A stretch of DNA of 64,000 nucleotides from an uncultured Acidimicrobiia bacterium (GCA_965368815.1 CBDUOH010000001.1:33087-97086); one strand, 5' to 3'; positions 7,891 to 63,563 are shown, numbered from the stretch's first letter. A program made the numbers and translations. The notes: a model not told the origin generated them from the sequence alone.

Positions 7891-7899
7891 GCGAGGCGG

Positions 7900-16433: not shown

Positions 16434-16435
16434 CG

Positions 16436-23497: not shown

Positions 23498-23553
23498 CGG
23501 GCTCCTGACAGCTCGTGGACTCAAGGCGGAAGGCTACCCGCCGTTTCCTGTGA

Positions 23554-24423: not shown

Positions 24424-25130
24424 CCGCCGAGGAACCGTGACGGATCCGACGAGAAGACGTTGGTACCGGTCTCAAGGTCTTCGAGACGTCCGAGGTCGAG
24501 CCAATAGGCGTCGGGCTGGCTGACAGCGACCCGCAGCCCTGCATCGCGGAATCGACGGATCAGATCAGGCATGTCGAGGCGCTCGCCCGGTTCGAGATGG
24601 GACCGAAGGGCGTCGACGGTCAGGATGTTGGTCCCCATCGAGACGAGGTACCGCATCGTTGGTTTCTCCGAGTACCCGGACAGGAGACCTTCAGTGTCGA
24701 CTTCGAGGACACCGAAGTCGACATGCACGACGCGTTCGTTCGACATGATCGTCGCAGCATCACTGGTGTTGTGGTCCCGATAGGCGGCAGCGAAGTCAAG
24801 GTCGGTCAGTGTGTCGCCGTTGACGACGAGCACCCGGTCGTCAGGGAATTCCGATATCAGGCCGAGGCTCCCCACCGTCCCCAAAGGTGTGTCCTCATAG
24901 ACATAGTCGATCGATACGTCCCACTTCGATCCATCGCCGCAGAAGCTCTCGATGAGCGTGGCAAGATGCCCCACGGAAATCGTGATTCGTTCGAAGCCTT
25001 GGGTACCGAGCTGTTTGATCAAGAGCTCGATGATCGGGATGTCACCGATGGGAACGAGCGGTTTCGGGATCGCAAAGGTGAACGGGGCGAGGCGGCTGCC
25101 CTTGCCGCCGGCGAGTATCACGGCGTGCAT
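24420..25130 (-). CDS. Sugar-1-phosphate nucleotidyltransferase
   Basis: MHAVILAGGKGSRLAPFTFAIPKPLVPI is the canonical G-x-G-t-R-L NTP-transferase signature. GGAGGA RBS upstream. Confidence 0.85.
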   Translation of the reverse strand: MHAVILAGGKGSRLAPFTFAIPKPLVPIGDIPIIELLIKQLGTQGFERITISVGHLATLIESFCGDGSKWDVSIDYVYEDTPLGTVGSLGLISEFPDDRVLVVNGDTLTDLDFAAAYRDHNTSDAATIMSNERVVHVDFGVLEVDTEGLLSGYSEKPTMRYLVSMGTNILTVDALRSHLEPGERLDMPDLIRRFRDAGLRVAVSQPDAYWLDLGRLEDLETGTNVFSSDPSRFLGG

Positions 25131-25139
25131 GTCGTCCTC

Positions 25140-26147
25140 CTAGACGTTGTAGGTACCGGGCTTGTACTGGGCCCGATTGGCCCCATCCGAGAACCACGAC
25201 ACCGTTTCTGATATGCCGCGGTTGAACCCGTCGAGTCCTCCGTACTCGGGTTCCCAGCCGAGGATCTCCCGAGCCTTCTCGTTCGAAGCCCACAGGCGAT
25301 CGACCTCACTGTCAGCCGGTCGGACGCGTGCGTCTTCCGTCTCAACCTCGAGTTCCCGTCCGATCGCCGTTCCCACGGCTTCAACCACCTGACCGACCGA
25401 GATCTCGAAATTCGATCCGAAGTTGATGACTTCGCCGAGCCCGACGGTGCTTTCCGCCTCGATCGCGAAGCCACGGGCGATGTCCTTGACGAAGTTGAAG
25501 TCTCTTGTCGGGGTGAGTGTGCCGAGGCGAATGGGGTTTCGGGTTGTGAGCGCCTGGATGATGATGGTCGGGATCACGGCGCGAGCGGATTGTCGCGGCC
25601 CATAGGTGTTGAAGGGTCTCGCGACCGTCACCGGCGTGCCGAACGACCTGTGATACGACAGCGCGAGCTGGTCAGCCCCGATCTTCGATGCGGCGTAGGG
25701 GGATTGCGCTCGGAGCGGGTGTTCCTCGGTGATCGGCACGAACTGGGCAGTTCCGTACACCTCGCTCGTGGAGGTCTGGACGATTCGTCGTACCTCGAGT
25801 TCCCTCGCCGCCTCGAGCACGTTCAAGGTCCCCGTCACGTTGGTGTCGACGTACGACTGGGGGGCGATGTACGAGTACGGAATCCCGATGAGGGCGGCAA
25901 GATGGAGAACCGTGTCGGTTCCGCGCATGACGTTTCTGACGAGGAACGGGTCTCTGACGTCGCCAAGCACGATGTTCATGGCACTTGTGACGTCCGGAGG
26001 AAGGTTGTCGAGCCAACCCCACGTCCCGAACGAGGTGTAGTAGGCCAGCGCCGTGACCTCATGGCCCCGTGCCACGAGCTCCTCGCACACGTGGGAACCG
26101 ATGAAACCGTCTGCTCCGGTAACCAGGATGTTTCTCGATGCGGTCAA
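25140..26147 (-). CDS. NDP-hexose 4,6-dehydratase-like extended SDR
   Basis: ILVTGADGFIGSHVCEELV, STSEVYG and YAASKIGADQL (S/YxxxK). YYTSFGTWGWLD resembles the LegB-type/archaeal-type 4,6-dehydratase subgroup (from memory). It appears to start at TTG 26147, with GAAGGGA upstream. Confidence 0.8.
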   Translation of the reverse strand: MTASRNILVTGADGFIGSHVCEELVARGHEVTALAYYTSFGTWGWLDNLPPDVTSAMNIVLGDVRDPFLVRNVMRGTDTVLHLAALIGIPYSYIAPQSYVDTNVTGTLNVLEAARELEVRRIVQTSTSEVYGTAQFVPITEEHPLRAQSPYAASKIGADQLALSYHRSFGTPVTVARPFNTYGPRQSARAVIPTIIIQALTTRNPIRLGTLTPTRDFNFVKDIARGFAIEAESTVGLGEVINFGSNFEISVGQVVEAVGTAIGRELEVETEDARVRPADSEVDRLWASNEKAREILGWEPEYGGLDGFNRGISETVSWFSDGANRAQYKPGTYNV

Positions 26148-26265
26148 CTGTTGTCCCTTCGGTCTCGGTGTAGCTTATCGAGCGGGTGTGATCGGTCGGA
26201 TCGGGTTTCGTGGTCGCCGATCCACATTCATCGGTCGGGCCGGGGTACTTCAAGTCCCGCCGTCG

Positions 26266-28581: not shown

Positions 28582-28665
28582 CGGCGAGTTCGATACCCGT
28601 GGTGCGCACGATGCGCGGGTACCATACCGACGCTCCATGAATCCTCGACTGAGCGACGACCACCG

Positions 28666-29496
28666 ATGACCGATACGACATTCACACACGATTCTGCTCG
28701 TGGCCGGCGGCCGCTTCTGACCGACGTCGCCAACCTGCGAAAGTATCGCGGGCTGCTCCGCTTGCTCGTTGTGCGAGATCTCACGGTCAGGTACAAGCGA
28801 TCCGCGCTCGGTGTGTGGTGGACATTGCTGAACCCGCTGCTGTTCTCTGCAGTCATCTGGGTGGTGTTCGGACAGATCTTCCGGTTCGAGACGCCGGGGG
28901 TCCCGTACATCGTGTACCTGCTCTCCGGTGTGATCTGGATGGGCTTCTTCTCCCAGGGCGTCATGACGACTGGTTCGTCGATCGTGAACAGTGCCTCGAT
29001 TCTCACCAAGGTGAGTGTGCCGCCAGAAGTGTTCTCGTTCGCGGCAGCGATAGCGGCAGGATCGAACTTCGTTCTCAGCCTCCCGATTCTGATTGCTGCC
29101 CAGCTCGCCTTCGGCGTCGGTATCCCGTGGACGATCGTGCTCGTCCCGATCCCGCTTCTCGCAACCGTTGTCCTTGTGACGGGTATCGGACTCCTGGTTG
29201 CTTCTGCAGCGGTGTTCTTCTTCGACGTGCTCGACTTCACGGCCGTTCTCGTTCAGCTTGCGAGCTACTTGACGCCGACGTTCTACCCGATCGAAATCAT
29301 TCCTGACCACCTCCGCTGGCTGGTCGGACTCAACCCCCTCTATTCCTATCTGGAGATCTTCCGCGGGTTCATGTACGGCGGGACATTCGCTCCTGCCTGG
29401 CAATTCGCATACATGTCCGTCACGGCCGTGGTCGCGCTCATGCTCGGCGTATGGGTGTTCAATCGCAGTTGGAAGAATCTCGTGGTGAGGATCTGA
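28666..29496 (+). CDS. ABC-2 type polysaccharide/teichoic-acid export permease (Wzm/TagG-like)
   Basis: LLRLLVVRDLTVRYKRSALGVWWTLLNPLL is the typical ABC-2 N-terminal motif. Six TM helices. Confidence 0.85.
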   Translation: MTDTTFTHDSARGRRPLLTDVANLRKYRGLLRLLVVRDLTVRYKRSALGVWWTLLNPLLFSAVIWVVFGQIFRFETPGVPYIVYLLSGVIWMGFFSQGVMTTGSSIVNSASILTKVSVPPEVFSFAAAIAAGSNFVLSLPILIAAQLAFGVGIPWTIVLVPIPLLATVVLVTGIGLLVASAAVFFFDVLDFTAVLVQLASYLTPTFYPIEIIPDHLRWLVGLNPLYSYLEIFRGFMYGGTFAPAWQFAYMSVTAVVALMLGVWVFNRSWKNLVVRI

Positions 29497-30239
29497 TGTC
29501 CAACGACGCAGTTGTCAGGGTTGAGGACGTGTCGCTCGCCTTTCGCATCGGTCGGAGTCAGGTGGGAACGATGAAGGAACACCTCATCAACCTTCTGAAG
29601 GGAAACACGACCTACGAGAAGCTCTGGGCGCTCAAAGGCGTGTCGTTCGAGGTGCAACGCGGAGAGGTGCTGGGCATCATCGGGCCGAATGGCGCTGGCA
29701 AGTCAACCCTGATGAAGATCATCGCGCAGGTACTCCCACCGACATCGGGAAGAGTCAGGGTCGACGGTTCGATCGCACCGATGATCGAACTCGGGGCCGG
29801 GTTCAACTCCGAGATGACCGGGGTGGAGAACATCGTGTTGTACGGCACCCTGCTCGGTCGTGATCCGAAGGAAATGCGAGAGCGTGTCGGCGCCATTGCC
29901 GAGTGGGCAGAGTTGGAGGAATTCATCGACACGCCGATCCGCAATTACTCGTCCGGGATGTTGGCCCGACTCGGGTTCGCCGTTGCGACCGATCAACGAC
30001 CCGATGTCCTGGTGGTCGACGAGGTGTTGTCGGTGGGCGATGAGAGCTTCCAAAGCAAGTCAGGCAAGCGCATCGAAGCCATGATCGCCGAAGGGACCTC
30101 GGTTGTCCTTGTCTCGCACGTGCTCGGGACAGTCGCGGAATTGGCCGACCGGGTGGTCTGGCTCGACCATGGGAACATCGTCAAAGAGGGCGACCCGAAA
30201 GACATCGTCGAGTCCTATCGAGAGGCTGCTACCGGTTGA
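29496..30239 (+). CDS. ABC exporter ATP-binding protein (Wzt/TagH-like, no C-terminal carbohydrate-binding domain)
   Basis: Start moved to ATG 29496 (TGATG overlap). Walker A GPNGAGKST, signature YSSGMLARL, Walker B VLVVDE. Only ~247 aa. Confidence 0.9.
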   Translation: MSNDAVVRVEDVSLAFRIGRSQVGTMKEHLINLLKGNTTYEKLWALKGVSFEVQRGEVLGIIGPNGAGKSTLMKIIAQVLPPTSGRVRVDGSIAPMIELGAGFNSEMTGVENIVLYGTLLGRDPKEMRERVGAIAEWAELEEFIDTPIRNYSSGMLARLGFAVATDQRPDVLVVDEVLSVGDESFQSKSGKRIEAMIAEGTSVVLVSHVLGTVAELADRVVWLDHGNIVKEGDPKDIVESYREAATG

Positions 30240-31221
30240 GTGAACCGGTTGGTTCGGTGCGGAGCGATCGCGCCTTGCCGAAACCAAGCAGCAGGCCCAC
30301 CCAGAGGCCGGATCCGTAGGCCAGGTGCATCGTCGCTGCGGCGATGCTCACACCGAGCGGCCGTTCTGACGCTCTGATACCCACGACAGCGAGTGCAGCG
30401 GTCCATGACCCGACCAGGACGATCAGGGGGATCCACGAGACGGTCAATCCCACGATCACGCCGACAAGCATTCCTGCCACGAGGAACGCAGGCGCAAGCG
30501 GTCGTGGCGACGGGAGCCTGCCGTTGGCGATGAGGAGTTCACTCTTGCCCTGCCCGTAGCGCCAGTATTGGCGTGCAAGTTGACGCCATGAACTCCGTGG
30601 CCGGTACCACGAGCGTATGTCCGGATCGACAACAACAGTGCGACCGGACGCACGCCACCGTGCGTAGAAGTCGGCATCTTCAACGGTCCCGGAAGGAAAT
30701 GTGCGGTAGCCGCCGGTGTCGAGGAAGTCGACACGAGCGAACGTCCCGAGATACACGGTATCGACAGTTTCACGTTGTGTCGCATGACGGAAACGGCCCG
30801 GTCCGATGGCAATCGGATCCGCCATGGCGGCTGCCACTGACCGCTCCCAGGCAGTGGCTCCCTCACCGACCATGGGGCCACCGACCGCAGAACCCGGTAC
30901 CCAACCATCGATGCTCGCGGTCACGTAGTTCTCTGCATACCTCGTGTGCGCATCGAGGCGGACAAGCAGGTCGCCGGTCGCCTGGGAGGCCACGGCGTTG
31001 AGCCCGATCGATTGCACGCGGTCCGGGTTCGGATGAAGTTGCACTCGTGGATCGATTCGGCTGCGGGCCTGAACTCGTTCAACCGTGCCATCGGTCGACC
31101 CACCATCGGCAACCAGGACCTCGATGACACGCCGGTCGGTGAGGGCGACATCCATTACGTGATCGACGTTCTCGACCTCGTTGAACGTCGCGACGATCAC
31201 TGACACGGAAGGTAAATGCAT
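30229..31221 (-). CDS. GT2 glycosyltransferase with C-terminal TM helices (ExoA-like)
   Basis: VSVIVATFNEVENVDHVM, VADGGSTDGT and a DAH motif. Two or three C-terminal TM segments. The 3' end overlaps the convergent ABC ATPase gene by 11 nt. Confidence 0.8.
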   Translation of the reverse strand: MHLPSVSVIVATFNEVENVDHVMDVALTDRRVIEVLVADGGSTDGTVERVQARSRIDPRVQLHPNPDRVQSIGLNAVASQATGDLLVRLDAHTRYAENYVTASIDGWVPGSAVGGPMVGEGATAWERSVAAAMADPIAIGPGRFRHATQRETVDTVYLGTFARVDFLDTGGYRTFPSGTVEDADFYARWRASGRTVVVDPDIRSWYRPRSSWRQLARQYWRYGQGKSELLIANGRLPSPRPLAPAFLVAGMLVGVIVGLTVSWIPLIVLVGSWTAALAVVGIRASERPLGVSIAAATMHLAYGSGLWVGLLLGFGKARSLRTEPTGSLNR

Positions 31222-31294
31222 TTCGCCACCACAATACCTGTCGGTGGTACTTCCAAGCTCTCAAGCCAGACACGACTTTTGCCGATATCAAGGA

Positions 31295-33055
31295 ATGCGT
31301 CTCCTTCGCGCCCTTGTCACGATCGCAAGTGTTCTCGCCTTGCTCGCTCCCGCCGGCGCGATTGCCGGTGAGGTACCTGCGCAGCTGCACACGGGTTTGT
31401 ACTCGGATGACTTCGATTCCTCCGGCGACCTCAACGCCGTCGGATCGGCGGCAGGGCAGAAAGTGACGTTCGGTGGAACGTTCCACGACATTTCCGAGGC
31501 CAGCGGAAGCTACAACCCCTCTGACCCGAACTCGTGGTCGAACACCGTGCAGATCCTTGACGGTGTGTGGGCCGGCAAGGCGACACCGTTTGCCAACGTG
31601 GGCGTCAATGCATCGGCCGCGGCGATCGCAAGCGGCGCCCATGACGCTCAGATAGCCGAGTGGGTTCGTCATGTGAAGGCCTGGCTCGACAAGCTTGAGA
31701 ATCGCAGCCTTGTCGTGGCCCCGCTCCAGGAACACAACGGGAACTGGACGCCGTACGGCTGTAATCCAACAGCGTTCAAGGCCGCCTACCAGAAGTTCGT
31801 CGATGCATTCGACAACGCCGGCATAGGCGAGAACAAGGTGAGGTTCGCCTGGGCACCGAACGGTTGGACATCCCCGGGCTGTGGATCGCTTGCGGACTAC
31901 TACCCGGGTGACGGGGTCGTCGACGTGGTCGGAATCTCGGCATACAACTGGTCGGCCTGCCCGGGCAACGCAGCCTACGACACGCCCGCCGAGGCGATGG
32001 GGCCCTATCTCGACGAGATCCGAGGCACGATCCCCGGGGCGGGGGTGAAGCCGTTCGTGATCGCCCAGACAGCCTCGCCTCGTGGGTCATGCCAGAGCGA
32101 CTGGATCACGTCGATGGTTCCGTACCTGAAAGCCGATCCCAATGTCGTCGGATTCGTCTGGTTCAACTTCAACAAACCGGGCGAACCGGACTTCCGTGTC
32201 TGGACGACATCGCTGACGAAGGGCTGGAAGGATGCAGTTGCCACCGGGGACACGACGTACACGTGGCCTCTGACGTCCTGGTTCACGCCCGGCCCGTTGA
32301 CCGTCGGTGGGCTGCCACCCGAGGACCCTCCGTGCGGCAAAGGACCCTGCGACACCATCGCATCGATCGATGGCGGCGGACTCTGGTCTCGATGGGCTGA
32401 GCTGTTGTCGACGTCGGGAACGAATGACTTCTACTTCGGCAATCCCGGGGACTTCCCATTCATGGGTGACTGGAACGGAGACGGAACCGCAACGCCGGGT
32501 CTGTACAGGCAGTCGGACGGGTTTGTGTATGTCCGGTACTCCAACAGCCAAGGCATAGCGGATCGTGAGTTCTTCTTCGGCAACCCGGGAGACGTCCCGT
32601 TGGTTGGCGATTTCGACGGCGATGGTCGCGACTCGGTCTCGATCTGGCGTGCCAGCGAGGCACGGGTCTACATCATCAACGAGCTCGGCGCCGACGGAGC
32701 TGGGCTTGGTGCAGCCGACTTCAGCTACTACTTCGGGAACCCGGGCGACCAGCCCTATGTCGGCGATTTCGACGGTGACGGCATCGACACAGTCGGTCTG
32801 TACCGGCAATCAACCGGGTTCGTGTACTTCCGGAATTCGCTCACGACCGGCAATGCGGACTTCTCGTTCTTCTACGGGAACCCCGGAGATCGCATCATCG
32901 CCGGCGACTGGGACGGTGATGGCGACGACACGGTGGCCGTGTACCGACCGTCCACCCGTCGGATCTACGTCAATCTTGAGAACTCGAGCGGAGCAGCCGA
33001 CTGGACCGGGTACGTCGGAACCGTGTCCCACGTCGTGACTGCGGGCAACCGTTGA
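31295..33055 (+). CDS. Secreted GH26-like glycoside hydrolase + four-repeat GNPGD module
   Basis: Start moved to ATG 31295 (MRLLRALVTIASVLALLAPAGAIA signal peptide). VAPLQEHNGNWTPYG, FAWAPNGW and YYPGDGVVDVVGISAYNW resemble GH26 motifs (PLHEMNG.W / YYPGD.YVD..G.D.Y). The family call is tentative. Confidence 0.8.
   Translation: MRLLRALVTIASVLALLAPAGAIAGEVPAQLHTGLYSDDFDSSGDLNAVGSAAGQKVTFGGTFHDISEASGSYNPSDPNSWSNTVQILDGVWAGKATPFANVGVNASAAAIASGAHDAQIAEWVRHVKAWLDKLENRSLVVAPLQEHNGNWTPYGCNPTAFKAAYQKFVDAFDNAGIGENKVRFAWAPNGWTSPGCGSLADYYPGDGVVDVVGISAYNWSACPGNAAYDTPAEAMGPYLDEIRGTIPGAGVKPFVIAQTASPRGSCQSDWITSMVPYLKADPNVVGFVWFNFNKPGEPDFRVWTTSLTKGWKDAVATGDTTYTWPLTSWFTPGPLTVGGLPPEDPPCGKGPCDTIASIDGGGLWSRWAELLSTSGTNDFYFGNPGDFPFMGDWNGDGTATPGLYRQSDGFVYVRYSNSQGIADREFFFGNPGDVPLVGDFDGDGRDSVSIWRASEARVYIINELGADGAGLGAADFSYYFGNPGDQPYVGDFDGDGIDTVGLYRQSTGFVYFRNSLTTGNADFSFFYGNPGDRIIAGDWDGDGDDTVAVYRPSTRRIYVNLENSSGAADWTGYVGTVSHVVTAGNR
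32429..33013 (+). repeat. Four-repeat GNPGD module, copy 2
   Basis: FYFGNPGDFPFMGDWNGDGTATPGLYRQSDGFVYVR, FFFGNPGDVPLVGDFDGDGRDSVSIWRASEARVYIINELGADGAGLG, YYFGNPGDQPYVGDFDGDGIDTVGLYRQSTGFVYFR, FFYGNPGDRIIAGDWDGDGDDTVAVYRPSTRRIYVNL. Confidence 0.9.
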
Positions 33056-41460: not shown

Positions 41461-42473
<1,013 letters not shown>

Positions 42474-42477
<4 letters not shown>

Positions 42478-44354
42478 TGGCCTGCCTCCCCATCAAGGAG
42501 TCGATGGATCTCGGTCTCGATCTCTCTGGCTCTCATCGGTTGTCCCTGGATCCGGTTGAACGATACGGTCGGGATCAGGTACTCGGCTCTGATGAGTCGC
42601 GAAAGCTGTCCCATGTTGATCTCGGGCACGAGGACCGACTTGTACCGGCGCAGGACCTCTTCGAGATTCTTCGGCATCGGGTTGAGGTGCCGCAGGTGCA
42701 CGTGGGCCACGGGGCGACCGGCCTTGATCACCCGGTTGACCGCGGTTCGTGCCGCGCCATATGTCGATCCCCAGCTGAGAACCAGAAGCTCGTCGCCTTC
42801 GCCGTGGACGACGACATCGGGTATGTCCTGTGCTATTCGCTTGATCTTCTCCGCACGGGTATGGGTCATCGCCTCGTGGTTGTCGGGATCGTACGAAACG
42901 TTGCCCGTGGTTGCGTCCTTCTCGAGACCACCGACTCTGTGTTCCAACCCGGGTTGGCCCGGAATCGCCCAAGGTCGCGACATCGTCTCCGGGTCTCGTA
43001 GGTAGGGGAGGAACGGCCCATCCTCCTCGGAGTGGGTCGCATACGGGCGGGAGATGTCCGGCAGGTCGTCGAGGTTGGGCAGTGCCCACGGTTCGGACGA
43101 CGTTGCGATGTAACCATCGGTCAGCAGGATCACAGGAGTCATGTACTTGATGGCGATGCGTGCCGCTTCGAACGCTGCACCGAAGGCATCCGACGGCGAC
43201 GAGGTCGACACGATGGGGAGAGGCGATTCGCCATGTCGTCCGTACATCGCGAACAGGAGGTCGGACTGTTCGACCTTGGTGGGCAACCCCGTCGAAGGCC
43301 CACCTCGCTGGATGTCCACGACGACCATCGGCAGTTCGATCATCAACGCGAGTGACAACGTCTCGGATTTGAGGGCGAGCCCCGGTCCCGAGGTCGTCGT
43401 CACGGCGAGTCTGCCGGTGAACGCGGCCCCGAGGGCGGTCCCGATTCCTGCGATTTCATCCTCTGCCTGGAACGACTTCACACCGAAATTCTTGTGCCGT
43501 GCGAGTTCCTCGAGGATCGTCGTCGCCGGGGTGATCGGGTACGAACCGATGAACAACGGGATGTTGGCCTTGTCCGACGCCGCCATCAGCCCCCATGCGG
43601 TGGCCGTGTTCCCCACGACGTTGGTGTACTCGCCCGGGGGAAGTTCGGCAGGTTTGATCTCGAATGTCTGATGGAACGCTTCGGTCGTTATCCCGAAGTT
43701 GTACCCCGCCTTGAGGGCGGCAGTGTTGGCATTCGTCACCGGTGTGTCGGATCCGAACTTGGTGACGACCCAGTCGATCACAGGATCGAGAGGCCGCTGG
43801 TAGATCCACGACATGAGGCCGAGGGCGAAGAAGTTCTTCGACCGCAGGGTTTCGCGACCTTTCACCCCTGTGTCCTTGACCGCCTCCTTGGTGAGTTCGT
43901 CCATCGGCGCCTGCAGGAACCGATAGGCATCGAGGCTGCCGTCTTCAAGGGGATTCGTGTCGTAGCCGGCCTTGGCGAGGTTGCGTTCCTCGAACGCATC
44001 ACTGTTGACAATCAGCAGACCACCCTTGACCAGGTCGTGGAGGTGAGCTTTGAGCGCAGCCGGGTTCATCGCAACGAGGCAGTCAGGGTTGTCGCCGGGC
44101 GTCAGGATGTCCCAGTCCGCGATGTGGACCTGGAAGGATGAGACGCCTGCGATGGTGCCGGCGGGAGCACGGATCTCTGCCGGGAAGTTCGGAAGGGTCG
44201 CGAGGTCATTGCCGAACAGGGCAGAGCTTGCTGTGAACTGCGTTCCTGCGAGCTGCATTCCGTCACCGGAGTCGCCAGCGAATCGGATGACCACGTCCTC
44301 GATCTGCTCGGGGGCTGGTCGTTCTTCGGTCAGGGTCTCTTCGGACACGGTCAA
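42474..44354 (-). CDS. korA: 2-oxoacid:ferredoxin oxidoreductase, alpha subunit
   Basis: FAGDSGDGMQLAG, GSYPITPAT and TTSGPGLALK motifs. The start is either TTG 44354 or, more likely given GGAG spacing, GTG 44348. Confidence 0.9.
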
Positions 44355-49874: not shown

Positions 49875-49949
49875 GATCGGACTGTCCAGCGTAAACCACG
49901 GTTACCACCTTGAGTAGTGTTGATGACGAAACCCGATACGGAGGTACCC
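49875..49949. promoter_or_regulatory. sodX-sodN divergent intergenic region (presumed promoters; GGAGG RBS for sodN near 49940)
   Basis: 75 bp lie between the divergent starts. GGAGG lies 6-7 nt before ATG 49950. No operator was identified. Confidence 0.35.
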
Positions 49950-50378
49950 ATGCGAGTGATTGAGAAGTTGCTGCGTCCCAAGACAGAGGTCCATGCCCAC
50001 TGTGATCTGTTCTGTGGCGTGTATGACCCGGCGCAGGCGATGATCGAAGCGACATCATGCCTGAAGGCTGCCGAGAAATACCACGCCTCCGACGACGACG
50101 TGTTCCGCGCACGATGCATTGCCATCAAGGAAGAGCGGGCCGAACTCGTCAAGCATCATCTCAACGTGTTGTGGGCTGATTTCTTCAAGCCGCACCATGT
50201 CGAACAGTTCCCCGGACTCCATGATCTGTTCTGGCGCGCGATCAAGGCTGCAGGTGATGCAAAGAAGTCGATGGACCCAACCGTGTCCCAGGGGATGATC
50301 GATCTCATCGGTGAGATCAGCGAGATGTTCTGGCAGACGGAAGAATCCAAGGCCACCGGGTTGTATCCGCCGTCCTAG
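49950..50378 (+). CDS. sodN: Nickel superoxide dismutase precursor
   Basis: Start moved to ATG 49950. The propeptide MRVIEKLLRPKTEVHA is followed by HCDLFCGVYDPAQA (Ni-hook). The rest aligns by eye with Streptomyces SodN (KEERAELVKHH..VLW.D.FKP). Confidence 0.92.
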   Translation: MRVIEKLLRPKTEVHAHCDLFCGVYDPAQAMIEATSCLKAAEKYHASDDDVFRARCIAIKEERAELVKHHLNVLWADFFKPHHVEQFPGLHDLFWRAIKAAGDAKKSMDPTVSQGMIDLIGEISEMFWQTEESKATGLYPPS

Positions 50379-56883: not shown

Positions 56884-57690
56884 CTATCGACGGCGTCTGC
56901 GGTCCCGCCATCCCGTGGTGAGATAGCGCCAGTAGGTGGTCGTTCCGGATCCGGAGGGAGCGGCGACGCCAGGTGGAACCGTTCCGCCGTTGTTGACATC
57001 GTGGGACGGCTCGCTGGCCGGTTCTGGGTCCGGATGGTGGTCCTCACCGATGACGACCTGTCCGGGTGTCGTTGCCGCAGCCAGGTCGGAGCGAAGTTCC
57101 CTCAACCGTTCCCGTAGGAATTGGGATTCCGTTTCTGCTTTGGCAGCTCGCTCGCGTGCATCGGCGAGCTGTTGCCCTGCCTCGTGGAGGTTTCCCAACT
57201 GGTTGAGCATCTTGTTCCACGCATCGACGGGGACGAGCATCGTGCCCTCGGGGTGTTCGGGTGAGGTGTCTGGTTGCGGCGAAGGAGCCGTTTGCTGGCT
57301 TGGCTGTGCGGCACTGCTTGCGTTGACGGCGGCCGGAGTGCGGGTGTCCTGATGTGCGGATCCGCTTGGCGAGTCATCCGAGTGGTGCTCAGGATCGGGC
57401 GTCGCGAGGTCACGTCCGAGCGATCGTGCACGCTCCCGGATCGAATCGAGATCGACCATACGAAGCGCGAGCTCGCCATCGGATTCGAGGTACGTCGCGA
57501 CCGTCTCCTTGCGCACCCATTTGCGCAACGTATTGGTGGGGATCCCTGTGGCGGCCTCGGCTTCCTTGAGCGTCACCCACGTACCCGACGCAGCGTTCGG
57601 ACCTCGTTTGGATGTCGGACGCGGTGGTGTGGTTCGCTTCGCCGGCGATGCTCGTATCGCCTCTGTTTCCCATCTGGTGGTGGCATCCAT
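56884..57690 (-). CDS. Helix-turn-helix (excisionase/MerR-like HTH) DNA-binding protein with coiled-coil and low-complexity tail
   Basis: WVTLKEAEAATGIPTNTLRKWVRK is an HTH_17-like segment. The later QLADARERAAKAETESQFLRERLRELR is helical. It is divergent from the BMC operon. Confidence 0.6.
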   Translation of the reverse strand: MDATTRWETEAIRASPAKRTTPPRPTSKRGPNAASGTWVTLKEAEAATGIPTNTLRKWVRKETVATYLESDGELALRMVDLDSIRERARSLGRDLATPDPEHHSDDSPSGSAHQDTRTPAAVNASSAAQPSQQTAPSPQPDTSPEHPEGTMLVPVDAWNKMLNQLGNLHEAGQQLADARERAAKAETESQFLRERLRELRSDLAAATTPGQVVIGEDHHPDPEPASEPSHDVNNGGTVPPGVAAPSGSGTTTYWRYLTTGWRDRRRRR

Positions 57691-57771
57691 TGTGATCCCA
57701 TCCTATCGGCCCCGCACCCTGCGCGAATGCGAGGCGAAGGGATGCCCCGTGGAGGTGCCACGGGTTCTAGG
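57691..57771. promoter_or_regulatory. Divergent intergenic region between the HTH gene and the BMC operon (presumed promoter/operator)
   Basis: Positional only: 81 bp between the start at 57690 (-) and ATG 57772 (+). If rpiB instead uses TTG 57793, the region extends to 57792. Confidence 0.3.
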
Positions 57772-58398
57772 ATGACATGTGAAGGAGCCGCATTGACCGC
57801 ACGAGATCCCAACATCGAAGCTGACGTGCGTTCACTTGTCCGCCGTATCGTCGACGGCATCATGGACGGTGGCGTCGATGACGGAAACGCTCCATCGACC
57901 GACCCGCGTGAACCGGTGGATGTGGACAGTGGATCATCGCCGGTCGGTGCTGTGGCCATTGGTGGGGATCACGGTGGATACGCGATGAAAGAAAAGCTTG
58001 CGTTCCGCCTCAAGGAGCTGGGGATGCGGGTGGTGGATTGCGGTACCGACTCGACGGATTCGGTCGATTATCCCGACATCGCCGCGGCGGTCGCTCATGA
58101 GGTCGCATCGGGGAACACGGACGTCGGAATCGTGGTGGACGGTGCCGGTATCGGTTCAGCGATCGCGGCCAACAAGGTCATGGGCATCCGAGCAGCGAGA
58201 TGTGATGACATCTCGACTGCGCGCAATGCCCGCGAACACAACCATGCCAACGTCCTGACGCTCGGCGCCGGGCTCATCGGTGACGCCCTTGCGTGGCAGA
58301 TCGTGGAGGAGTTCCTCGCAACACCCTACGGTGAGGGGCGTCACGCCCGCAGAGTGGACAAGATTTCCGACCTCGAACGGAGCCGAAGCCGGTCATGA
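57772..58398 (+). CDS. rpiB: Ribose-5-phosphate isomerase B-type sugar-phosphate isomerase with ~60-aa N-terminal extension
   Basis: Core [16 protein letters not shown]...[23 protein letters not shown]...[17 protein letters not shown] is RpiB/LacAB family. Start is ATG 57772, or TTG 57793 which has a strong GAAGGAG 5 nt upstream. Confidence 0.85.
57814..57864 (+). other. Encapsulation-peptide-like amphipathic helix on RpiB
   Basis: [17 protein letters not shown] is followed by the Gly/Asp/Pro/Ser-rich linker [26 protein letters not shown]. The pattern resembles PduP/PduD-type N-terminal targeting helices. Confidence 0.55.
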
Positions 58399-59237
58399 CC
58401 GACGTCAGCAGAGATCAGCTTGTTGAGATTGTCACCCGAGAGGTCTTGTCGGCGCTCGCGGAACGGTCCGACATCTGCGCAAGCCCTGAGAAGTTGCGCA
58501 GCGTGGTCGCCAGCGGAGCCGATCGCGTGTCGTTCCACGGCGACGCAGAGGACGTTCCCCTCGACCTCGCCAAGTACATCGACCACACGTTGCTGCGACC
58601 AGATGCGACCGCGGACGAGATCGACACGATGTGTGATGAAGCGATGGAGTACGGATTCGCATCGGTGTGCATCAACCCGACCTGGGTCAAACGAGCAGCC
58701 GAGCGACTCCGTGGATCAGAGGTCAAGGTCTGCACCGTGATCGGTTTCCCCCTTGGTGCAACACCGCCGGAGATCAAGGCGATGGAGGCCAGGCGTGCGC
58801 TTCGCGACGGCGCTCGCGAGGTCGACATGGTCATCAATGTCGGTGCCCTCAAGTCCGGGGACCAGGAGCTTGTGCTCCGGGACATCGAAAAGGTGGTGGA
58901 TGCCGCACATGAGGGCGGAGCCATTGCCAAGGTGATCCTCGAAACGGCACTGCTCACGGACGAGGAGAAAGTGATCGCCTCGGCGCTCGCTCGTCAGGCT
59001 CGTGCTGACTTCGTCAAGACATCGACCGGGTTCGGGGGCGGAGGCGCAACCGTGTACGACGTTGCATTGATGCGCGAGACCGTGGGGCCGAACATGGGAG
59101 TGAAGGCGAGCGGGGGAGTCCGGACACTCGCCGATGCCGAAGATATGATCGCTGCAGGTGCCACCAGGATCGGTGCTTCGGCGGGAGTCCAGATCGTCAG
59201 TGGTAATGAAGGAGATTCCGATGACAAGCGGTATTGA
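58395..59237 (+). CDS. deoC: Deoxyribose-phosphate aldolase (class I, DERA) with ~50-aa N-terminal extension
   Basis: ATGA overlap with rpi[22 protein letters not shown] and DFVKTSTGF (Schiff-base Lys) motifs. Confidence 0.9.
58410..58463 (+). other. Encapsulation-peptide-like amphipathic helix on DeoC
   Basis: [18 protein letters not shown] lies at residues 6-23, ahead of the conserved DERA core. Confidence 0.55.
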
Positions 59238-59847
59238 GCTGCGTTCGTATGCATTCCTCGACAGTCTGCAGCCTCAGTACGCAGCATTCATGGGGACGAC
59301 TGCCCAGGGTTTCCTTCCGCTTGCCGGAGAAGCGGTGCTCTTCGTCGAGGTTGCGCCCGGTATCGAGATCAACCGATTGACCGATGTCGCTCTCAAGGCC
59401 ACGAGCGTCAAGCCGGGGATGCAGATCATCGAGCGGGTCTTCGGCCTCCTCGAGGTCCATTCACCGGAGCAGTCCGAGACGCGAGCCGCAGGTGAAGCAA
59501 TTCTCGAGTCGCTCGGGGCAAAGGAATCGGACCGACTCAAGCCTGTGGTCCATACGAGCCAGATCATCCGCAGGATCGACGATCATCACGCTCAGCTGAT
59601 CAACCGCACACGCCACGGCCAGATGATCATTCCCGGCCAGACGCTGTACGTCCTCGAGTGTGCTCCCGCTGCCTACGCCGCACTTGCCGCGAACGAGGCG
59701 GAGAAGGCGGCGAACATCAATGTGCTCGAGGTTCGAGCATTCGGTGCGGTCGGGCGGATCTATCTCGGTGGCGAAGAGCAGGACATCGAGGTCGGCTGGC
59801 ACGCAGCCGTCGCAGCGATTGAAGGTCTCGACGGGCGATCGTCGTAG
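59221..59847 (+). CDS. Tandem BMC-domain shell protein (BMC-T-like)
   Basis: Start moved to ATG 59221, with GAAGGAG upstream; it overlaps the deoC 3' end by 17 nt. There are two BMC-like halves: [26 protein letters not shown]... and [44 protein letters not shown]. Confidence 0.7.
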
Positions 59848-59891
59848 TCAACGAACGAACAAGACACACATATCGATCCATAGGAGGGTCC

Positions 59892-60194
59892 ATGTCAGAC
59901 GCATTGGGAATGATTGAGTGCCGTAGTTTCGCGGCGATGGTCGAGGCAGCCGACGCCATGGTCAAGGCTGCCAAGGTCGAGCTCGTGAGCTATGAGGAGA
60001 CCGGGGGCGGCTACGTCACGGCCATCATCCGTGGGGACGTTGCTGCGGTCAAGGCAGCGGTCGACGCCGGTGTGCGCGGTGGCGAGAAGGTCGGCGAGGT
60101 CATCGCAACACACGTGATCGCACGTCCACACGTCAACCTCGATCTCATCCTCCCGCTCGGTCGAGCGGACGAGGCGAAGGACGCTGTCAGCTGA
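59892..60194 (+). CDS. BMC-H hexamer shell protein (PduA/EutM type)
   Basis: AGGAGGG RBS. ALGMIECRSFAAMVEAADAMVKAAKVELVSYEETGGGYVTAIIRGDVAAVKAAVDAG is a textbook single BMC domain. Confidence 0.92.
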   Translation: MSDALGMIECRSFAAMVEAADAMVKAAKVELVSYEETGGGYVTAIIRGDVAAVKAAVDAGVRGGEKVGEVIATHVIARPHVNLDLILPLGRADEAKDAVS

Positions 60195-60237
60195 TTCCTG
60201 CATCGATCCGACGTGATCGCAATCGAAAGGAGCTGAC

Positions 60238-60525
60238 GTGAATCTCGGAAGGGTGACAGGAACGCTGGTCGCCTCCCGCAAGGAGCCCTTGCTTGAGGGG
60301 CTGCCTCTGCTCGTCGTGCGCCAGCTGGACGAAACCGGAGCTCCCAAGGGTGGCTACGTCGTTGCCGTGGACAGCGTCGGCGCCGGAATCGACGAAGTCG
60401 TGTTGTATGCAAGCGGAAGCTCCGCCCGCCAGACATCGGTGACCAGGGACAAACCCTGTGACGCCGTCATCATGGCCATCGTCGACCAATGGGATGTCGA
60501 TGGAGAAACGGTCTACGTGAAGTGA
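60238..60525 (+). CDS. BMC-P pentamer vertex protein (EutN/CcmL family), paralog 1
   Basis: GTG start with GAAAGGAG upstream. [15 protein letters not shown]...LLVV..LD...[11 protein letters not shown]...GSSAR is the EutN_CcmL pattern. Confidence 0.9.
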
Positions 60526-60526
60526 C

Positions 60527-61990
60527 ATGGCGCGTCTGACCGACTCTGACATCCAGGCGATCATCTCCCGCGTCAAAGAGCGCGTTGCCTTCACCGACAT
60601 AGAGGGAAAGACGTCGCAGGCCCTCCGGGCCGGGCAAGCGATAGCCGATCCCGACGAAGACCTCGGGGACGGCGTGTTTGCGACCGTTGATGAAGCCGTT
60701 GCAGCAGCCAAGCAGGCGTTCATGCGATATCAGACCAGCGGACTCGACGCCCGCAAGGAGATCATCGAGTCGATCCGTGCGTCGATGCGTGAGAACAACG
60801 AACGCCTCGCATACATGGCCAGACAGGAGACCGGCCTCGGTCGTGCCGACGACAAGGTGCTGAAGAACCATCTGGTGATCGAGCGCACACCGGGGCCCGA
60901 AGACCTCGAACCACAGGTCATCACAGGGGACAAGGGCATGACCATCACCGAGTTTGCTCCGTACGGGGTCATCGGTGCGATCACGCCGACGACCAACCCG
61001 ACATCGACGATCATCAACAACACCATCGCGATCCTGTCGGCAGGCAATGCCGTGACGTTCAACGTCCACCCGAGTGCCCGCAAGGTTTCGACCGAGAACG
61101 TGAAACTGATCAATCAGGCGGTGCGGCGCGCCGGCGGCCCCGAGAACCTGGTCACCAGTGTCGCGGTCCCCACGCTGGATTCGGCTCAGGCGCTCATGCA
61201 ACACCCTGACGTTCGGGTCCTCTTGGTCACCGGCGGACCGGGCGTTGTCAAAGAAGCCCTCCGCACTCCCAAGAAGGCCATCACAGCAGGACCGGGCAAC
61301 CCACCGGCAGTCGTCGACCAGACCGCTGACATCGAGAAGGCTGCCAAGGCGATCGTCCGGGGCGCTTCGTTCGACAACAACGTCATCTGCGTCGACGAGA
61401 AGACCACCATCGTCGTGGACACCGTCGCTGACCGCCTGGTGCAACACATGGTGGCCGCCGGCGCGTACCGTTTGAAGGAGCATGAACTCAAGCGTCTCGA
61501 ACGCGTGATCTTCAAGGAGATGGGTCCACCGAACAAACCCGGAGTCATCAACGGGCAGTTCATCGGCAAGGACGCGGCCGTCATCCTCAACGAGATCGGG
61601 GTCAGCGTCCCTCCCGAGGTCCGCCTCGTCATCGCCGAGGTCCCGGTTGAACACAGCCTCGTGTGGACGGAGCAGATGATGCCCGTGATGCCGGTGGTGC
61701 GGGTCAAGGACGTGGAAACCGCGATCGACCTCGCCGTCCGTTCCGAGCATGGTTTCCGCCACACCGCTTCGATCCACTCGACCAACGTCGACACGATCAC
61801 CACGATGGCCAAAGCGATGAACTGTTCGATCTTCGTGGCTAACGGTTCCAACGTCGCCGGTCTCGGCTCCGAGGGCGAGGGCTACACGAGCTTCTCGATC
61901 GCCAGTCCGACGGGCGAGGGGCTCACCAAACCCCGCACCTTCTCGCGCGAGCGACGCATTTCGGTGGTTGGAGCGTTGCGCATTGTCTGA
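60527..61990 (+). CDS. CoA-acylating aldehyde dehydrogenase (PduP/EutE-like)
   Basis: ITPTTNPTST, GGPGVV, AGPGNPP and FDNNVICVDEK (catalytic Cys context) motifs. N-terminal targeting-like helix. The gene starts 1 nt after the BMC-P stop. Confidence 0.9.
   Translation: MARLTDSDIQAIISRVKERVAFTDIEGKTSQALRAGQAIADPDEDLGDGVFATVDEAVAAAKQAFMRYQTSGLDARKEIIESIRASMRENNERLAYMARQETGLGRADDKVLKNHLVIERTPGPEDLEPQVITGDKGMTITEFAPYGVIGAITPTTNPTSTIINNTIAILSAGNAVTFNVHPSARKVSTENVKLINQAVRRAGGPENLVTSVAVPTLDSAQALMQHPDVRVLLVTGGPGVVKEALRTPKKAITAGPGNPPAVVDQTADIEKAAKAIVRGASFDNNVICVDEKTTIVVDTVADRLVQHMVAAGAYRLKEHELKRLERVIFKEMGPPNKPGVINGQFIGKDAAVILNEIGVSVPPEVRLVIAEVPVEHSLVWTEQMMPVMPVVRVKDVETAIDLAVRSEHGFRHTASIHSTNVDTITTMAKAMNCSIFVANGSNVAGLGSEGEGYTSFSIASPTGEGLTKPRTFSRERRISVVGALRIV
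60539..60586 (+). other. Encapsulation-peptide-like amphipathic helix on the aldehyde dehydrogenase
   Basis: TDSDIQAIISRVKERV lies at residues 5-20, comparable to the PduP N-terminal targeting sequence. Confidence 0.6.
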
Positions 61991-62594
61991 TCCCGCCAGG
62001 ACCGCCCCATCGATCTCTCTGTGGGAGTTCTCATCGATCGCCGAGGGCGTCCGGATCGCCGATCAGATAGCCAAGGGTGCACCGGTTGCCGTTCTCACGT
62101 CCGGGACCACCCACCCGGGCAAGTACCTCGTCCTCGTGGCGGGAGACACGGCCTCGGTTGTCGTTGCAAATGACATCGTGGCCGATGATGGACCTGAGAC
62201 CCTGCTCGACCATGTGTTCCTTGCAGACATCGCCCCGTCGGTGGCTGAAGCTCTGGCGAGCGGACGCGGTGCAGCGCACCTCGCCGGTGAAGCGGCAGGT
62301 ATCGTCGAAACCGACTCCGTTGCAGCGGCCATCGAAGCCGCGGACGCGGCGGTGAAGGACGCCGATGTCGCCTTGGGCATCATCCGGATGGCCGATGGAC
62401 TCGGCGGGAAGGGGTTCTTCATCGTCGACGGTTCGGTTGGGGAGGTCACTTCGAGTGTTGCCGCAGCCCGGGAACGGGCCGGCGCACACCTGATCGGCAC
62501 TGTCGTGATACCTCAGCTCACCGACGAGGTGCGAGCAGACCTCGCAGTGTCGCTCCGATTCGGGGACACCGTCGTATCGGGGGATCCGACATGA
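61968..62594 (+). CDS. Tandem BMC-domain shell protein (BMC-T, PduT-like architecture)
   Basis: First half ISLWEFSSIAEGVRIADQIAKGAPVAVL...GKYLVLVAGD; second half AAGIVETDSVAAAIEAADAAVKDADVALGIIRMADGLGGKGFFIVDGSVGEV. The start is non-ATG (TTG 61968 or TTG 61983) and overlaps the aldehyde dehydrogenase 3' end. Confidence 0.8.
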   Translation: MERCALSDPARTAPSISLWEFSSIAEGVRIADQIAKGAPVAVLTSGTTHPGKYLVLVAGDTASVVVANDIVADDGPETLLDHVFLADIAPSVAEALASGRGAAHLAGEAAGIVETDSVAAAIEAADAAVKDADVALGIIRMADGLGGKGFFIVDGSVGEVTSSVAAARERAGAHLIGTVVIPQLTDEVRADLAVSLRFGDTVVSGDPT

Positions 62595-62863
62595 TGCTTG
62601 GGCGTGTCCGTGGTTCGGTGGTGGCCACGGTGAAGGACGAGAACATGGAAGGGATGAAGCTGCTCGTCGTGCAGCCAGTCGCCGATGACGGCTCCGATGC
62701 GGGCGGCTGCGTGGTTGCAGCCGACGCCGTCCACCAGGCGGGTGTCGGCGACCTCGTGTATTTCGTGGCGTCCCGTGAGGCAGCAGAGGCGATGGAACCA
62801 CGTTTCGTTCCGGTCGACCACGCGATTGTCGGCATCGTCGATGCCGTGGATGTGAACCGATGA
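62591..62863 (+). CDS. BMC-P pentamer vertex protein, paralog 2
   Basis: ATGA overlap. MMLGRVRGSVVATVKDENMEGMKLLVVQP...AADAVHQAGVGDLVYFVASREA. Confidence 0.9.
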   Translation: MMLGRVRGSVVATVKDENMEGMKLLVVQPVADDGSDAGGCVVAADAVHQAGVGDLVYFVASREAAEAMEPRFVPVDHAIVGIVDAVDVNR

Positions 62864-63156
62864 AGGTCGGGCGTGTCGTCGGGACCGTGACATCGACCAT
62901 CAACCACGGGTTCTTCGACGGTCAGCGGCTGCTCGTGTGCGATCTGATCGATCGGGACGAAGCCGTCGGTGGATATCTGATCTGCACGGATCGTGTCGAT
63001 GCCGGACACGGTGACACGGTGCTCATCCTCGACGAGGGGACGTCGGCGCGTCAGATGCACGATGTCCCGACAGGCCCGATCAGGTCCGTTGTGGTCGGGA
63101 TCGTGGACGACATCAACGAGCTCGCCCCCGACGGCGACGATGCCGGAATCGGATAG
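62860..63156 (+). CDS. BMC-P pentamer vertex protein, paralog 3
   Basis: ATGA overlap. MKVGRVVGTVTSTINHGFFDGQRLLVCDLID...TDRVDAGHGDTVLILDEGTSARQ. Confidence 0.9.
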   Translation: MKVGRVVGTVTSTINHGFFDGQRLLVCDLIDRDEAVGGYLICTDRVDAGHGDTVLILDEGTSARQMHDVPTGPIRSVVVGIVDDINELAPDGDDAGIG

Positions 63157-63191: not shown

Positions 63192-63563
63192 GTGATGAGA
63201 ACCCGTCTCCACATCGTGCTGCTCGTCGGTGCGCTCCTCGTAGCGGGATGCTCGGGTGGGAGCGCGGCGTCCAGTTGCGACGATCTTGCCGCTGAGACCA
63301 TTGATCTGCTCCAGGCGCTCATCGATGACGTCGATGCCGAGTTCGATTCGATGAGCATCGAGGAGTTCATCGCCCAGGGTGAGAATCTGCCCTCCCTGGA
63401 GTCGTTCCGTGAGAAATCGGCTGCGATCGACCGACGTGCCGAGGAACTCGAATGCACCGAACTCGAGATAACGACAGGTGTCGCACAACGCGTCGGTGAA
63501 CTGACAGCGAAGACCCGACTCGGCCAATTCGTGATCAACCTGCTCACTTCCGGGGGCCTGTAG
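63192..63563 (+). CDS. Small lipoprotein, unknown function
   Basis: MMRTRLHIVLLVGALLVAGC has a lipobox (LVAGC). The mature part is helical and acidic. Start is GTG 63192 or ATG 63195. Confidence 0.6.
   Translation: MMRTRLHIVLLVGALLVAGCSGGSAASSCDDLAAETIDLLQALIDDVDAEFDSMSIEEFIAQGENLPSLESFREKSAAIDRRAEELECTELEITTGVAQRVGELTAKTRLGQFVINLLTSGGL

Follow-up and report, generated by a model that had tools for sequence, protein, structure and literature searches.

The 64,000-nucleotide stretch analysed here (the window; uncultured Acidimicrobiia bacterium, GCA_965368815.1, CBDUOH010000001.1:33087-97086, positions counted from its first letter) carries on its plus strand, at 57793..63156, nine co-directional and tightly packed genes for the enzymes and shell of a bacterial microcompartment (BMC). 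Open reading frame (ORF) translation and profile searches give the order RpiB-like protein, deoxyribose-5-phosphate aldolase (DERA), BMC-Tdp, BMC-H, BMC-P, coenzyme A (CoA)-acylating aldehyde dehydrogenase (AldDH), BMC-Ts, BMC-P and BMC-P. The shell set is six genes: one for a hexamer protein (BMC-H), two for tandem-domain proteins (BMC-T), of which one is a CcmP-like BMC-Tdp and the other a PduT-like BMC-Ts, and three for pentamer or vertex proteins (BMC-P). PF00936 is found in three genes and PF03319 in three, all inside 3.9 kb, with the enzyme genes interspersed.

The original prediction, made from the DNA alone, had listed nine co-directional genes in this order, with one BMC-H, two BMC-T and three BMC-P products. 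Translations and profile searches confirm the order, and the PF00936, CcmP and PF03319 matches confirm the count; every motif quoted for BMC-H, EutN/CcmL, DERA and AldDH is present in the translations, and in family hidden Markov model (HMM) searches each of the nine genes matched its expected family. The boundaries required revision. With the best starts, those of the two BMC-T genes being corrected to 59221 and 61983, the successive junctions measure -4, -17, +44, +43, +1, -8, -4 and -4 nt, so that overlaps reach 17 nt rather than the 1-4 nt first described. The operon had been taken to begin at ATG 57772, but for the RpiB-like gene the likeliest start is TTG 57793, which the Shine-Dalgarno sequence GAAGGAG (57781..57787) precedes. 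We prefer the TTG because ATG 57772 sits inside a conserved -10-like box, TAGGAT (57768..57773), and is out of frame with the RpiB-like gene in some relatives (L006 and L008), and because a separate gene call on L001, a near-identical metagenome contig that runs 10 kb past the window, gives the identical 57793 start. Genes without translational coupling are preceded by the Shine-Dalgarno sequences GAAGGAG, GAAGGAG, TAGGAGG and AAAGGAG.

All nine genes are intact. Against four orthologous loci, from which synonymous divergence (dS) is saturated (>1), the ratio of nonsynonymous to synonymous divergence (dN/dS) is 0.03-0.45 per operon gene, and all nine are under purifying selection. Phosphotransacylase (PduL), PduS, triose-phosphate isomerase and class II aldolase were found neither in the operon or the 10 kb downstream nor among the scanned upstream genes; alcohol dehydrogenase was likewise absent from the operon and the 10 kb downstream, and upstream there is one distant iron-dependent enzyme, 43 kb away. 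Since the flanking genes supply none of these functions, the operon is complete as nine genes and self-contained, with no satellite genes nearby. No further shell genes were found elsewhere in the window. Nor were any tRNAs found in it, and Rfam at gathering thresholds had no match anywhere in the window, so the idea of a riboswitch or RNA leader was dropped.

Enzymes and shell proteins

The DERA (58395..59237, plus strand, 280 aa) scores 287 bits with TIGR00126 (cut-off 117). Its residues 56-276 are highly identical to the solved DERA 8qps (E 1e-87), and its GVKASGG motif and the motif of the Schiff-base lysine align with those of solved DERAs. Ahead of the barrel lies an N-terminal extension of ~55 residues containing a conserved helix; in the AF2 model the barrel is confident, while the extension has a predicted local distance difference test (pLDDT) score of 33-59 and its helix, residues 6-22, is of low confidence. 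The AldDH (60527..61990, plus strand, 487 aa) scores 638 bits with PRK15398. Its catalytic Cys288 (FDNNVIC) is conserved in related loci, and the nearest solved structures are the microcompartment AldDHs 5JFL (E 3e-128) and 4C3S (E 1e-120). It begins with an encapsulation-peptide-like block, SDIQAIISRVKERV, followed by a linker.

This layout, a conserved N-terminal block and then a variable linker rich in Pro, Ala and Ser, is common to the RpiB-like protein, DERA and AldDH in dozens of loci. The block consensus is E-x-E-V-R-x-L-V-x-R-I-V-D-G-V in the RpiB-like protein, R-E-x-L-V-E-x-I-T-R-E-V-L-x-A-L in DERA and E-I-Q-A-I-I-E-R-V-R-x-R-V in AldDH. The three blocks seem to have the usual form of encapsulation peptides and match published descriptions. 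Judged by hydrophobic moment, only the RpiB-like helix is exceptional, with its value reached in 2% of shuffles; the DERA and AldDH helices cannot be told from shuffles.

In 19 of 84 related loci (L032-L034, L037, L038, L040-L048, L050, L051, L053, L063 and L079) the stretch of the DERA extension between helix and barrel carries a strict C-x2-C-x3-C-x3-C motif, for example ADACRDCEGSCAAHCPDKVR, and looser four-Cys versions occur in a few more. The four-Cys loci come from Chloroflexota, Nitriliruptoraceae, Thermoanaerobaculia and others; the window DERA (58395..58560) and its Acidimicrobiia relatives have the last Cys of the motif only. The motif, which the main text of the 2024 paper on this microcompartment class does not mention (PMC11585597), may be a metal or Fe-S site.

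The first gene (57793..58398, plus strand) encodes an RpiB/LacAB-family protein of 201 aa, in whose 208-aa reading PF02502 matches residues 61-198 (1.8e-51). An N-terminal encapsulation-peptide-like helix is followed by a variable linker of ~35 residues, and dN/dS for the gene is 0.13-0.19. We aligned it with Escherichia coli RpiB, the genome's own housekeeping RpiB and 79 microcompartment-linked homologues; for E. coli RpiB we used what we take to be the reference sequence, whose numbering agrees with the literature. Cys66 is replaced by Asp and Thr68 by Ala (E. coli numbering) in 79/79 microcompartment-linked relatives, and the housekeeping copies retain Cys and Ser at these two positions. 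Asp9, His10, His99, Asn100, Arg133 and Arg137 are invariant in the microcompartment-linked proteins (79-80 of the 81 related sequences examined).

In characterised RpiB, the catalytic base is Cys66, and Thr68 shuttles a proton between O1 and O2; the ring oxygen receives its proton from His99, and the phosphate is clamped by His10 together with two arginines; Cys-to-Ala and Cys-to-Ser mutants are inactive (PMC4783025). The RpiB-like protein appears, then, to have lost precisely the isomerisation step while retaining the residues for ligand binding and ring opening. With both the base and the proton shuttle gone, we see no role for it as a ribose 5-phosphate (R5P) isomerase. The same genome has a canonical RpiB (165 aa, L001:15241-15738, minus strand), some 10.2 kb beyond the downstream end of the window and with the Cys and Ser intact, so the microcompartment copy, 50% identical to it, is best read as a diverged paralogue and not the cell's isomerase. 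The original prediction had seen in an encapsulated RpiB a hint of another pentose-phosphate substrate; that hint is weakened by the two replacements and by the canonical enzyme nearby. The canonical gene adjoins those for polyphosphate kinase and a MutT1-like NUDIX-histidine-phosphatase fusion. In a Candidatus Eisenbacteria locus (L055:7241-8686, plus strand) the RpiB-like domain lies in an ORF of 481 aa, with PF02502 at residues 333-470; either the N-terminal extension is very long or, the DNA being GC-rich, the ORF has been over-extended.

Among the shell proteins, the first tandem protein (59221..59847, plus strand, 208 aa) scores 328 bits with the NCBIfam CcmP model (cut-off 340) and just 22 bits with Pfam BMC; because of this weak BMC and strong CcmP score we class it as the permuted, stacking BMC-Tdp. 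It aligns over its full length with CcmP (4HT5/5LSR, E 3e-80), and also with CsoS1D (2e-56) and with the BMC-T 5V76 of the Haliangium ochraceum (HO) shell (4e-71). The gating pair Glu71-Arg72 is present, the E-R being invariant in all related loci, and the protein's expected trimers would be stacked and gated. The second tandem protein, BMC-Ts (61983..62594, plus strand, 203 aa), has two PF00936 domains at 1e-27. In the alignment to PduT (3N79), His44 falls at the position of the Fe-S-binding Cys38; the protein has no cysteine at all, and related loci all have His or Gln at the pore position.

BMC-H (59892..60194, plus strand, 100 aa; PF00936 at 8e-30, edge motifs KAAK and ARPH) is the product of the operon's most conserved gene, with 72-93% identity across phyla in nine-gene loci and dN/dS of 0.03-0.10. 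The three BMC-P proteins, all on the plus strand, have 95 aa (60238..60525, PF03319 at 1.7e-28), 90 aa (62591..62863, 7.5e-24) and 98 aa (62860..63156, 2.2e-19; the last gene of the operon), and are mutually 34-39% identical. The second and third of their genes are adjacent, with a 4-nt overlap.

Class assignment and distribution

The sugar-phosphate-utilising (SPU) class was first defined in 2014 (Axen et al. 2014), and its catalogue holds >280 loci from 26 phyla in seven subtypes (Sutter et al. 2021, Nat Commun). Dwyer, Sutter and Kerfeld in 2024 curated 206 SPU loci, in which all DERAs and ribose-5-phosphate isomerase homologues (RPIs) are N-terminally extended, purified a truncated SPU6 DERA and measured its cleavage of 2-deoxyribose-5-phosphate (dR5P) (PMC11585597). 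They reported Asp for Cys66 in 'all SPU RPIs', measured negligible R5P isomerase activity for the SPU RPI, and isolated a ~131 kDa DERA-RPI complex, whose formation gave no gain in DERA efficiency or specificity in vitro; they proposed that the RPI serves core packaging and that, where phosphotransacylase is lacking, acetyl-CoA leaves through the large BMC-Tdp pore (PMC11585597). A 2025 preprint described SPU-type compartments in Asgard archaea and reconstituted their shells (PMC12747264). The statement in the original prediction that the class has no experimentally defined substrate or structure is therefore out of date. The residue pattern of the window's RpiB-like protein agrees with the published negative R5P assay.

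Like BMC loci in general, the window operon clusters BMC-H and BMC-P genes with enzymes, and it has the SPU marks: a DeoC-type DERA, an acylating AldDH, an RpiB-type protein with Cys66 replaced by Asp, and a BMC-P triplet. The predicted SPU class is borne out by DERA, RpiB-like protein and AldDH together with shell genes. Diol dehydratase, ethanolamine ammonia-lyase and glycyl-radical enzyme were not found among the operon genes and ~50 flanking ORFs scanned; no signature enzyme of the propanediol-utilisation (PDU), ethanolamine-utilisation (EUT) or glycyl-radical (GRM) types occurs among them, as the prediction required.

Within the class, the SPU3 descriptor limits the enzymes to AldDH, pfam02502 and pfam01791, with pfam02502 first and N-terminal encapsulation peptides on AldDH and DERA; it lists a single BMC-H whose edge motifs are the standard ones, a set of three BMC-P genes, two of which are always adjacent, a CcmP-like BMC-Tdp, and BMC-Ts proteins without PduS partner or pore cysteine, and it names Actinobacteria among the hosts (Sutter 2021 Supplementary Data 2). 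The nine-gene operon has this enzyme set, with no phosphotransacylase, triose-phosphate isomerase or PduS, and shares with SPU3 the leading pfam02502 gene, the N-terminal extensions on AldDH and DERA, the single BMC-H with its KAAK and ARPH edges, the BMC-P triplet with two genes adjacent, the Ts without pore cysteine or PduS, and an actinobacterial host. Its Tdp is CcmP-like by the best NCBIfam and PDB matches, not by the colour-clade tree. We take the locus to be an ordinary SPU3 member, by match to the listed descriptors rather than to the catalogue's HMM set. There are differences: the RpiB-like protein and DERA are fused in 12-20 catalogued loci and separate in the window, the window DERA extension lacks the four-Cys motif of many relatives outside Acidimicrobiia, and the upstream neighbour is a MerR/Xis-like protein, not a sugar-phosphate-sensing regulator.

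The only SPU system with enzyme biochemistry is SPU6, from Chloroflexi bacterium GWB2_54_36 (PMC11585597). It resembles the window in its DERA, with N-terminal extension and catalytic triad, in its RPI, with Cys66 replaced by Asp and an N-terminal encapsulation peptide, and in having RpiB and DERA adjacent, a BMC-P triplet, a BMC-Tdp and no PduS. Its AldDH, in contrast, belongs to an EUT3-like branch, bears a C-terminal encapsulation peptide and is ~30% identical to that of the window, which has an N-terminal block; the gene order RpiB-DERA-P-AldDH-H-Tdp-P-P also differs. Loci with that order yielded no BMC-Ts copy. The SPU6 Tdp belongs to another clade (blue), and its regulator is GntR/UTRA. 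The SPU6 subtype does not fit the window in AldDH branch, peptide position and gene order. We rejected SPU2, which has a fourth BMC-P and usually keeps the Ts pore Cys, because the window has three BMC-P and a Ts without Cys.

Beyond the class, the solved 6.5-MDa HO shell (PDB 5V74 and related) is built on the same plan, with one BMC-H, a BMC-P triplet, a CcmP/CsoS1D-like Tdp and a PduT-like Ts. The window Tdp matches the HO BMC-T proteins at E 4e-71 and 1e-69, and the window Ts matches HO BMC-T1 (5DIH) at 3e-21. The HO main locus differs in having no DERA or RpiB and no assigned substrate, and HO has two Tdp paralogues. The alignment of the window Tdp to CcmP of the beta-carboxysome is of high identity, with the Glu-Arg gating pair kept, and for both organelles a passage of sugar phosphates is presumed. 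Unlike the beta-carboxysome, the window lacks RuBisCO, carbonic anhydrase, CcmM and CcmN, and its organelle would be catabolic and aldehyde-oxidising.

A DERA-seeded scan with one genome per species yielded 80 loci, whose gene order was determined by tblastn with the window proteins. The identical nine-gene order was found in roughly 40 other species-representative genomes from several phyla, with hosts in Acidimicrobiia, Nitriliruptoraceae, Gaiellaceae, Chloroflexota, Thermoanaerobaculia, Eisenbacteria and Planctomycetota; the SPU6 order was found in Anaerolineae. Because of this recurrence and the low dN/dS we regard the operon as more than a chance arrangement, and the cassette is a mobile, conserved unit. 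The closest species-representative genomes are Acidimicrobiia metagenome-assembled genomes (MAGs), with DERA 75-84% identical, and the named homologues come from Acidimicrobiia or Actinomycetota MAGs. No earlier account of microcompartments in Acidimicrobiia turned up in the SPU catalogue's supplementary files that were searched, some of them truncated, and the papers searched yielded incidental citations only. Across Acidimicrobiia the cassette is kept at the same chromosomal site even with its genes diverged to dS >1. Two GTDB representative MAGs labelled Kiloniellales and Kiloniellaceae (L012 and L035) have DERA 66-77% identical to the window and Acidimicrobiia-type synteny, that is, ABC-2 transporter genes, a 268-aa protein, the cassette and pgl; probably, actinobacterial contigs were mis-binned here into alphaproteobacterial MAGs.

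Immediately upstream of the cassette, regulators of GntR/UTRA type occur in Nitriliruptoraceae, Gaiellaceae and Anaerolineae. Chloroflexia have a SorC-type sugar-binding regulator there, one Ilumatobacteraceae genome has a LacI-type one, and in a MAG labelled Acidimicrobiaceae the place is taken by an extracytoplasmic function (ECF) sigma factor. DeoR, the deoxyribonucleoside regulator with which Bacillus subtilis senses dR5P, belongs to the SorC family. Regulators of the sugar-phosphate type are consistent with a sugar-phosphate substrate.

Proposed role and alternatives

Taking the gene content, residues and relatives together, we think it quite likely that the operon encodes an SPU3-type catabolic microcompartment (metabolosome) that processes dR5P in an uncultured member of Acidimicrobiia, a marine-type actinobacterium. 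Derived from the breakdown of DNA or deoxynucleosides, dR5P would enter through BMC-H or BMC-Tdp pores and be split by DERA; glyceraldehyde-3-phosphate would leave for glycolysis, and the acetaldehyde, held by the shell, would be converted by the acylating AldDH with CoA and NAD+ to acetyl-CoA and NADH. This core chemistry, already put forward in the original prediction, agrees with the published model for the class. With phosphotransacylase, alcohol dehydrogenase and PduS absent from the locus, the shell would have to let acetyl-CoA/CoA and NADH/NAD+ exchange, and the gated BMC-Tdp pore is the most plausible path. The RpiB-like protein would most likely be a stoichiometric partner of DERA, helping to assemble or target the enzyme core. 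Expression would probably be driven from the -10-like box at 57768, and a divergent MerR/Xis-like protein of 268 aa may control the operon.

Several points weigh against this account. No deoA, deoB, deoD, kinase, or DNA or nucleoside transporter genes were found in the window and the 10 kb beyond it, so that a supply route for dR5P is unseen in the ~74 kb around the operon. The host is known only from metagenomes. The published biochemistry comes from SPU6, with its distant AldDH and other gene order, and exchange of cofactors through BMC-Tdp is a literature hypothesis rather than something measured. Encapsulation peptides were called from position and conservation, with amphipathicity clear for the RpiB-like protein only. 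Finally, the strict conservation of ligand-binding residues in the RpiB-like protein sits uneasily with a purely structural role.

This last point is the basis of the rival readings that fare best. In one, which we consider unlikely, the RpiB-like protein does catalyse a reaction, either with Asp in the role of a new base or on a sugar phosphate other than that of ribose, and the organelle handles an additional or different substrate. The six invariant ligand-binding residues, the Asp66 found throughout the microcompartment-linked proteins and the purifying selection on the gene all speak for activity; Mycobacterium tuberculosis RpiB does use a carboxylate base, Glu75 (PMC4783025; PMC11585597), and rare sugar phosphates were left open by Dwyer 2024 (PMC11585597). 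Yet the proton shuttle at position 68 is gone as well, Cys-to-Ala and Cys-to-Ser mutants of RpiB are inactive (PMC4783025), the SPU6 homologue is negligibly active on R5P and the SPU5 subtype has no RPI at all (PMC11585597). Nor does the locus contain a transketolase or other enzyme leading from a pentose phosphate to an aldehyde.

In the other, accessory catalysis is of a different kind: the RpiB-like protein binds the furanose form of dR5P and opens the ring or presents the substrate, passing the open chain to DERA. Just the two isomerisation residues are replaced, and His99 and the phosphate clamp are kept. Aldose-ketose isomerisation is impossible for 2-deoxyribose-5-phosphate, and its open chain is required for the DERA Schiff base. 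A complex of DERA with RPI is known, as are natural RPI-DERA fusions, but in vitro the complex raised neither the efficiency nor the specificity of DERA (PMC11585597), and for this reason we hold the idea possible but improbable. Free DERAs, moreover, function without such a partner, and the proposal is our own. The broader suggestion that the RpiB-like protein has been repurposed, whether to open furanose dR5P (through His99 and Asp9/His10) and present it to DERA in a 1:1 complex or to catalyse some other Asp-based reaction, is doubtful to a similar degree; if true, it would give a catalytic role to the long-unexplained second signature protein of the SPU class.

That the operon is a horizontally acquired relic, unexpressed or no longer organelle-forming in this lineage, draws on the clear mobility of the cassette across phyla and is highly improbable given nine intact genes with Shine-Dalgarno sequences and translational coupling, dN/dS of 0.03-0.45, and retention at one chromosomal site in Acidimicrobiia despite saturated dS.

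Under the preferred reading of a dR5P-processing metabolosome, the locus suggests that scavenging of DNA sugar by microcompartments is widespread in Acidimicrobiia. It adds one well-preserved example from an uncultured member of that group to a type catalogued in hundreds of genomes and under experimental study. Its modest practical value is that of a minimal nine-gene SPU3 operon, with a canonical RpiB paired in the same genome and very many close metagenome homologues. It offers a compact template for questions that concern the whole class, namely the role of the Cys-to-Asp RpiB-like protein, the recycling of CoA and NAD+ without internal enzymes, and the use of three pentamer paralogues, although it does not itself sharpen them.

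Upstream region and neighbouring genes

The hexamer TAGGAT (57768..57773, plus strand) came from comparison of intergenic regions and is of the TANNNT type. In about 20 Acidimicrobiia loci the RpiB-like start is preceded, at a distance of 15-40 nt, by a box reading TAGGAT, TAGAAT, TAGTAT or TAGAGT, and we infer that it acts as the -10 element of the operon promoter, with transcription in the window predicted to begin near 57780. A generic scan for sigma-70 promoters and terminators gave nothing useful at the operon ends. Just upstream of the box is a perfect 7-bp inverted repeat, CCCGTGG-N5-CCACGGG (57746..57764). It is a possible operator, for which the case is weak: no clear conserved counterpart was found in related intergenic regions, and we do not claim it as one.

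The divergent gene (56884..57690, minus strand) encodes the 268-aa MerR/Xis-like protein, which has a winged helix-turn-helix (wHTH) fold and is linked to the operon by position. Searches of Pfam and NCBIfam with it returned no match. It has 1230 homologues, nearly all unnamed; the labelled ones come from Acidimicrobiia or Actinomycetota MAGs, apart from two labelled as other phyla. The wHTH at ~38-90 is followed by a disordered linker, a long coiled-coil helix at 155-206 and a basic C-terminal helix, and the alignment has four conserved blocks, with the conserved basic C-terminal helix TTTYWRYLTTGWRDRKRR. In the AF2 model pLDDT is >90 for the wHTH and the coiled coil, and the best Foldseek matches are the DNA-binding domains of CvkR, Xis, CarH, NmlR and BldC, which are weak (E 0.04-0.3) and consistent. 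The gene stands beside the cassette, divergently, in 22 related loci, some with different outer flanks, and does so in 3/3 further loci, which share wider synteny. From its position the protein is a candidate lineage-specific regulator, and it is the locus's sole lineage-specific element. In most loci a TAGGAT or TATGAT box lies 7-10 nt before its ATG (57690..57710 in the window), and so short a distance suggests that its mRNA is leaderless.

Downstream, contig L001 shows in turn a lipoprotein-like ORF of 122 aa, the 6-phosphogluconolactonase gene pgl on the opposite strand, an alpha/beta hydrolase, the MutT1-like NUDIX-histidine phosphatase, polyphosphate kinase and the canonical RpiB. The 122-aa ORF (63195..63563, plus strand) begins 38 nt after the last BMC-P gene and has a signal peptide, a lipobox (LLVAGC) and no family match. 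We rejected it as a shell or cargo protein on the signal peptide and lipobox, its dN/dS of 0.43-0.49 and its detection in about 10 close relatives only; it is probably an unrelated lipoprotein. The pgl gene, which had been offered as a possible pentose-phosphate link, was likewise set aside as part of the system: it lies on the opposite strand, is absent beside the cassette in most related loci and accompanies it only in a subset of close Acidimicrobiia relatives, so that its presence reads as lineage synteny.

Far upstream, within a cell-envelope polysaccharide cluster (about 3600..33000), a phosphonate-biosynthesis module occupies 12930..17821 on the minus strand. It consists of a phosphoenolpyruvate (PEP) mutase fused to a cytidylyltransferase domain (16436..17821), a thiamine pyrophosphate-dependent phosphonopyruvate-decarboxylase-like gene (15303..16433), the iron-dependent alcohol dehydrogenase mentioned above (14176..15306) and a glycerophosphotransferase-like gene (12930..14153), all on the minus strand. 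We considered this dehydrogenase as the missing alcohol dehydrogenase of the microcompartment and found it an unlikely one, given its distance and its place in a PEP-mutase/phosphonopyruvate-decarboxylase module. The module is flanked by many glycosyltransferases and an ABC-2 exporter, which suggests a phosphonate-decorated glycan. Elsewhere in the window, a two-subunit 2-oxoacid:ferredoxin oxidoreductase (41461..44354, minus strand), an enzyme of an oxygen-sensitive type, shares one neighbourhood with an aerobic defence enzyme, a nickel superoxide dismutase (49917..50378, plus strand), the two being about 5.6 kb apart.

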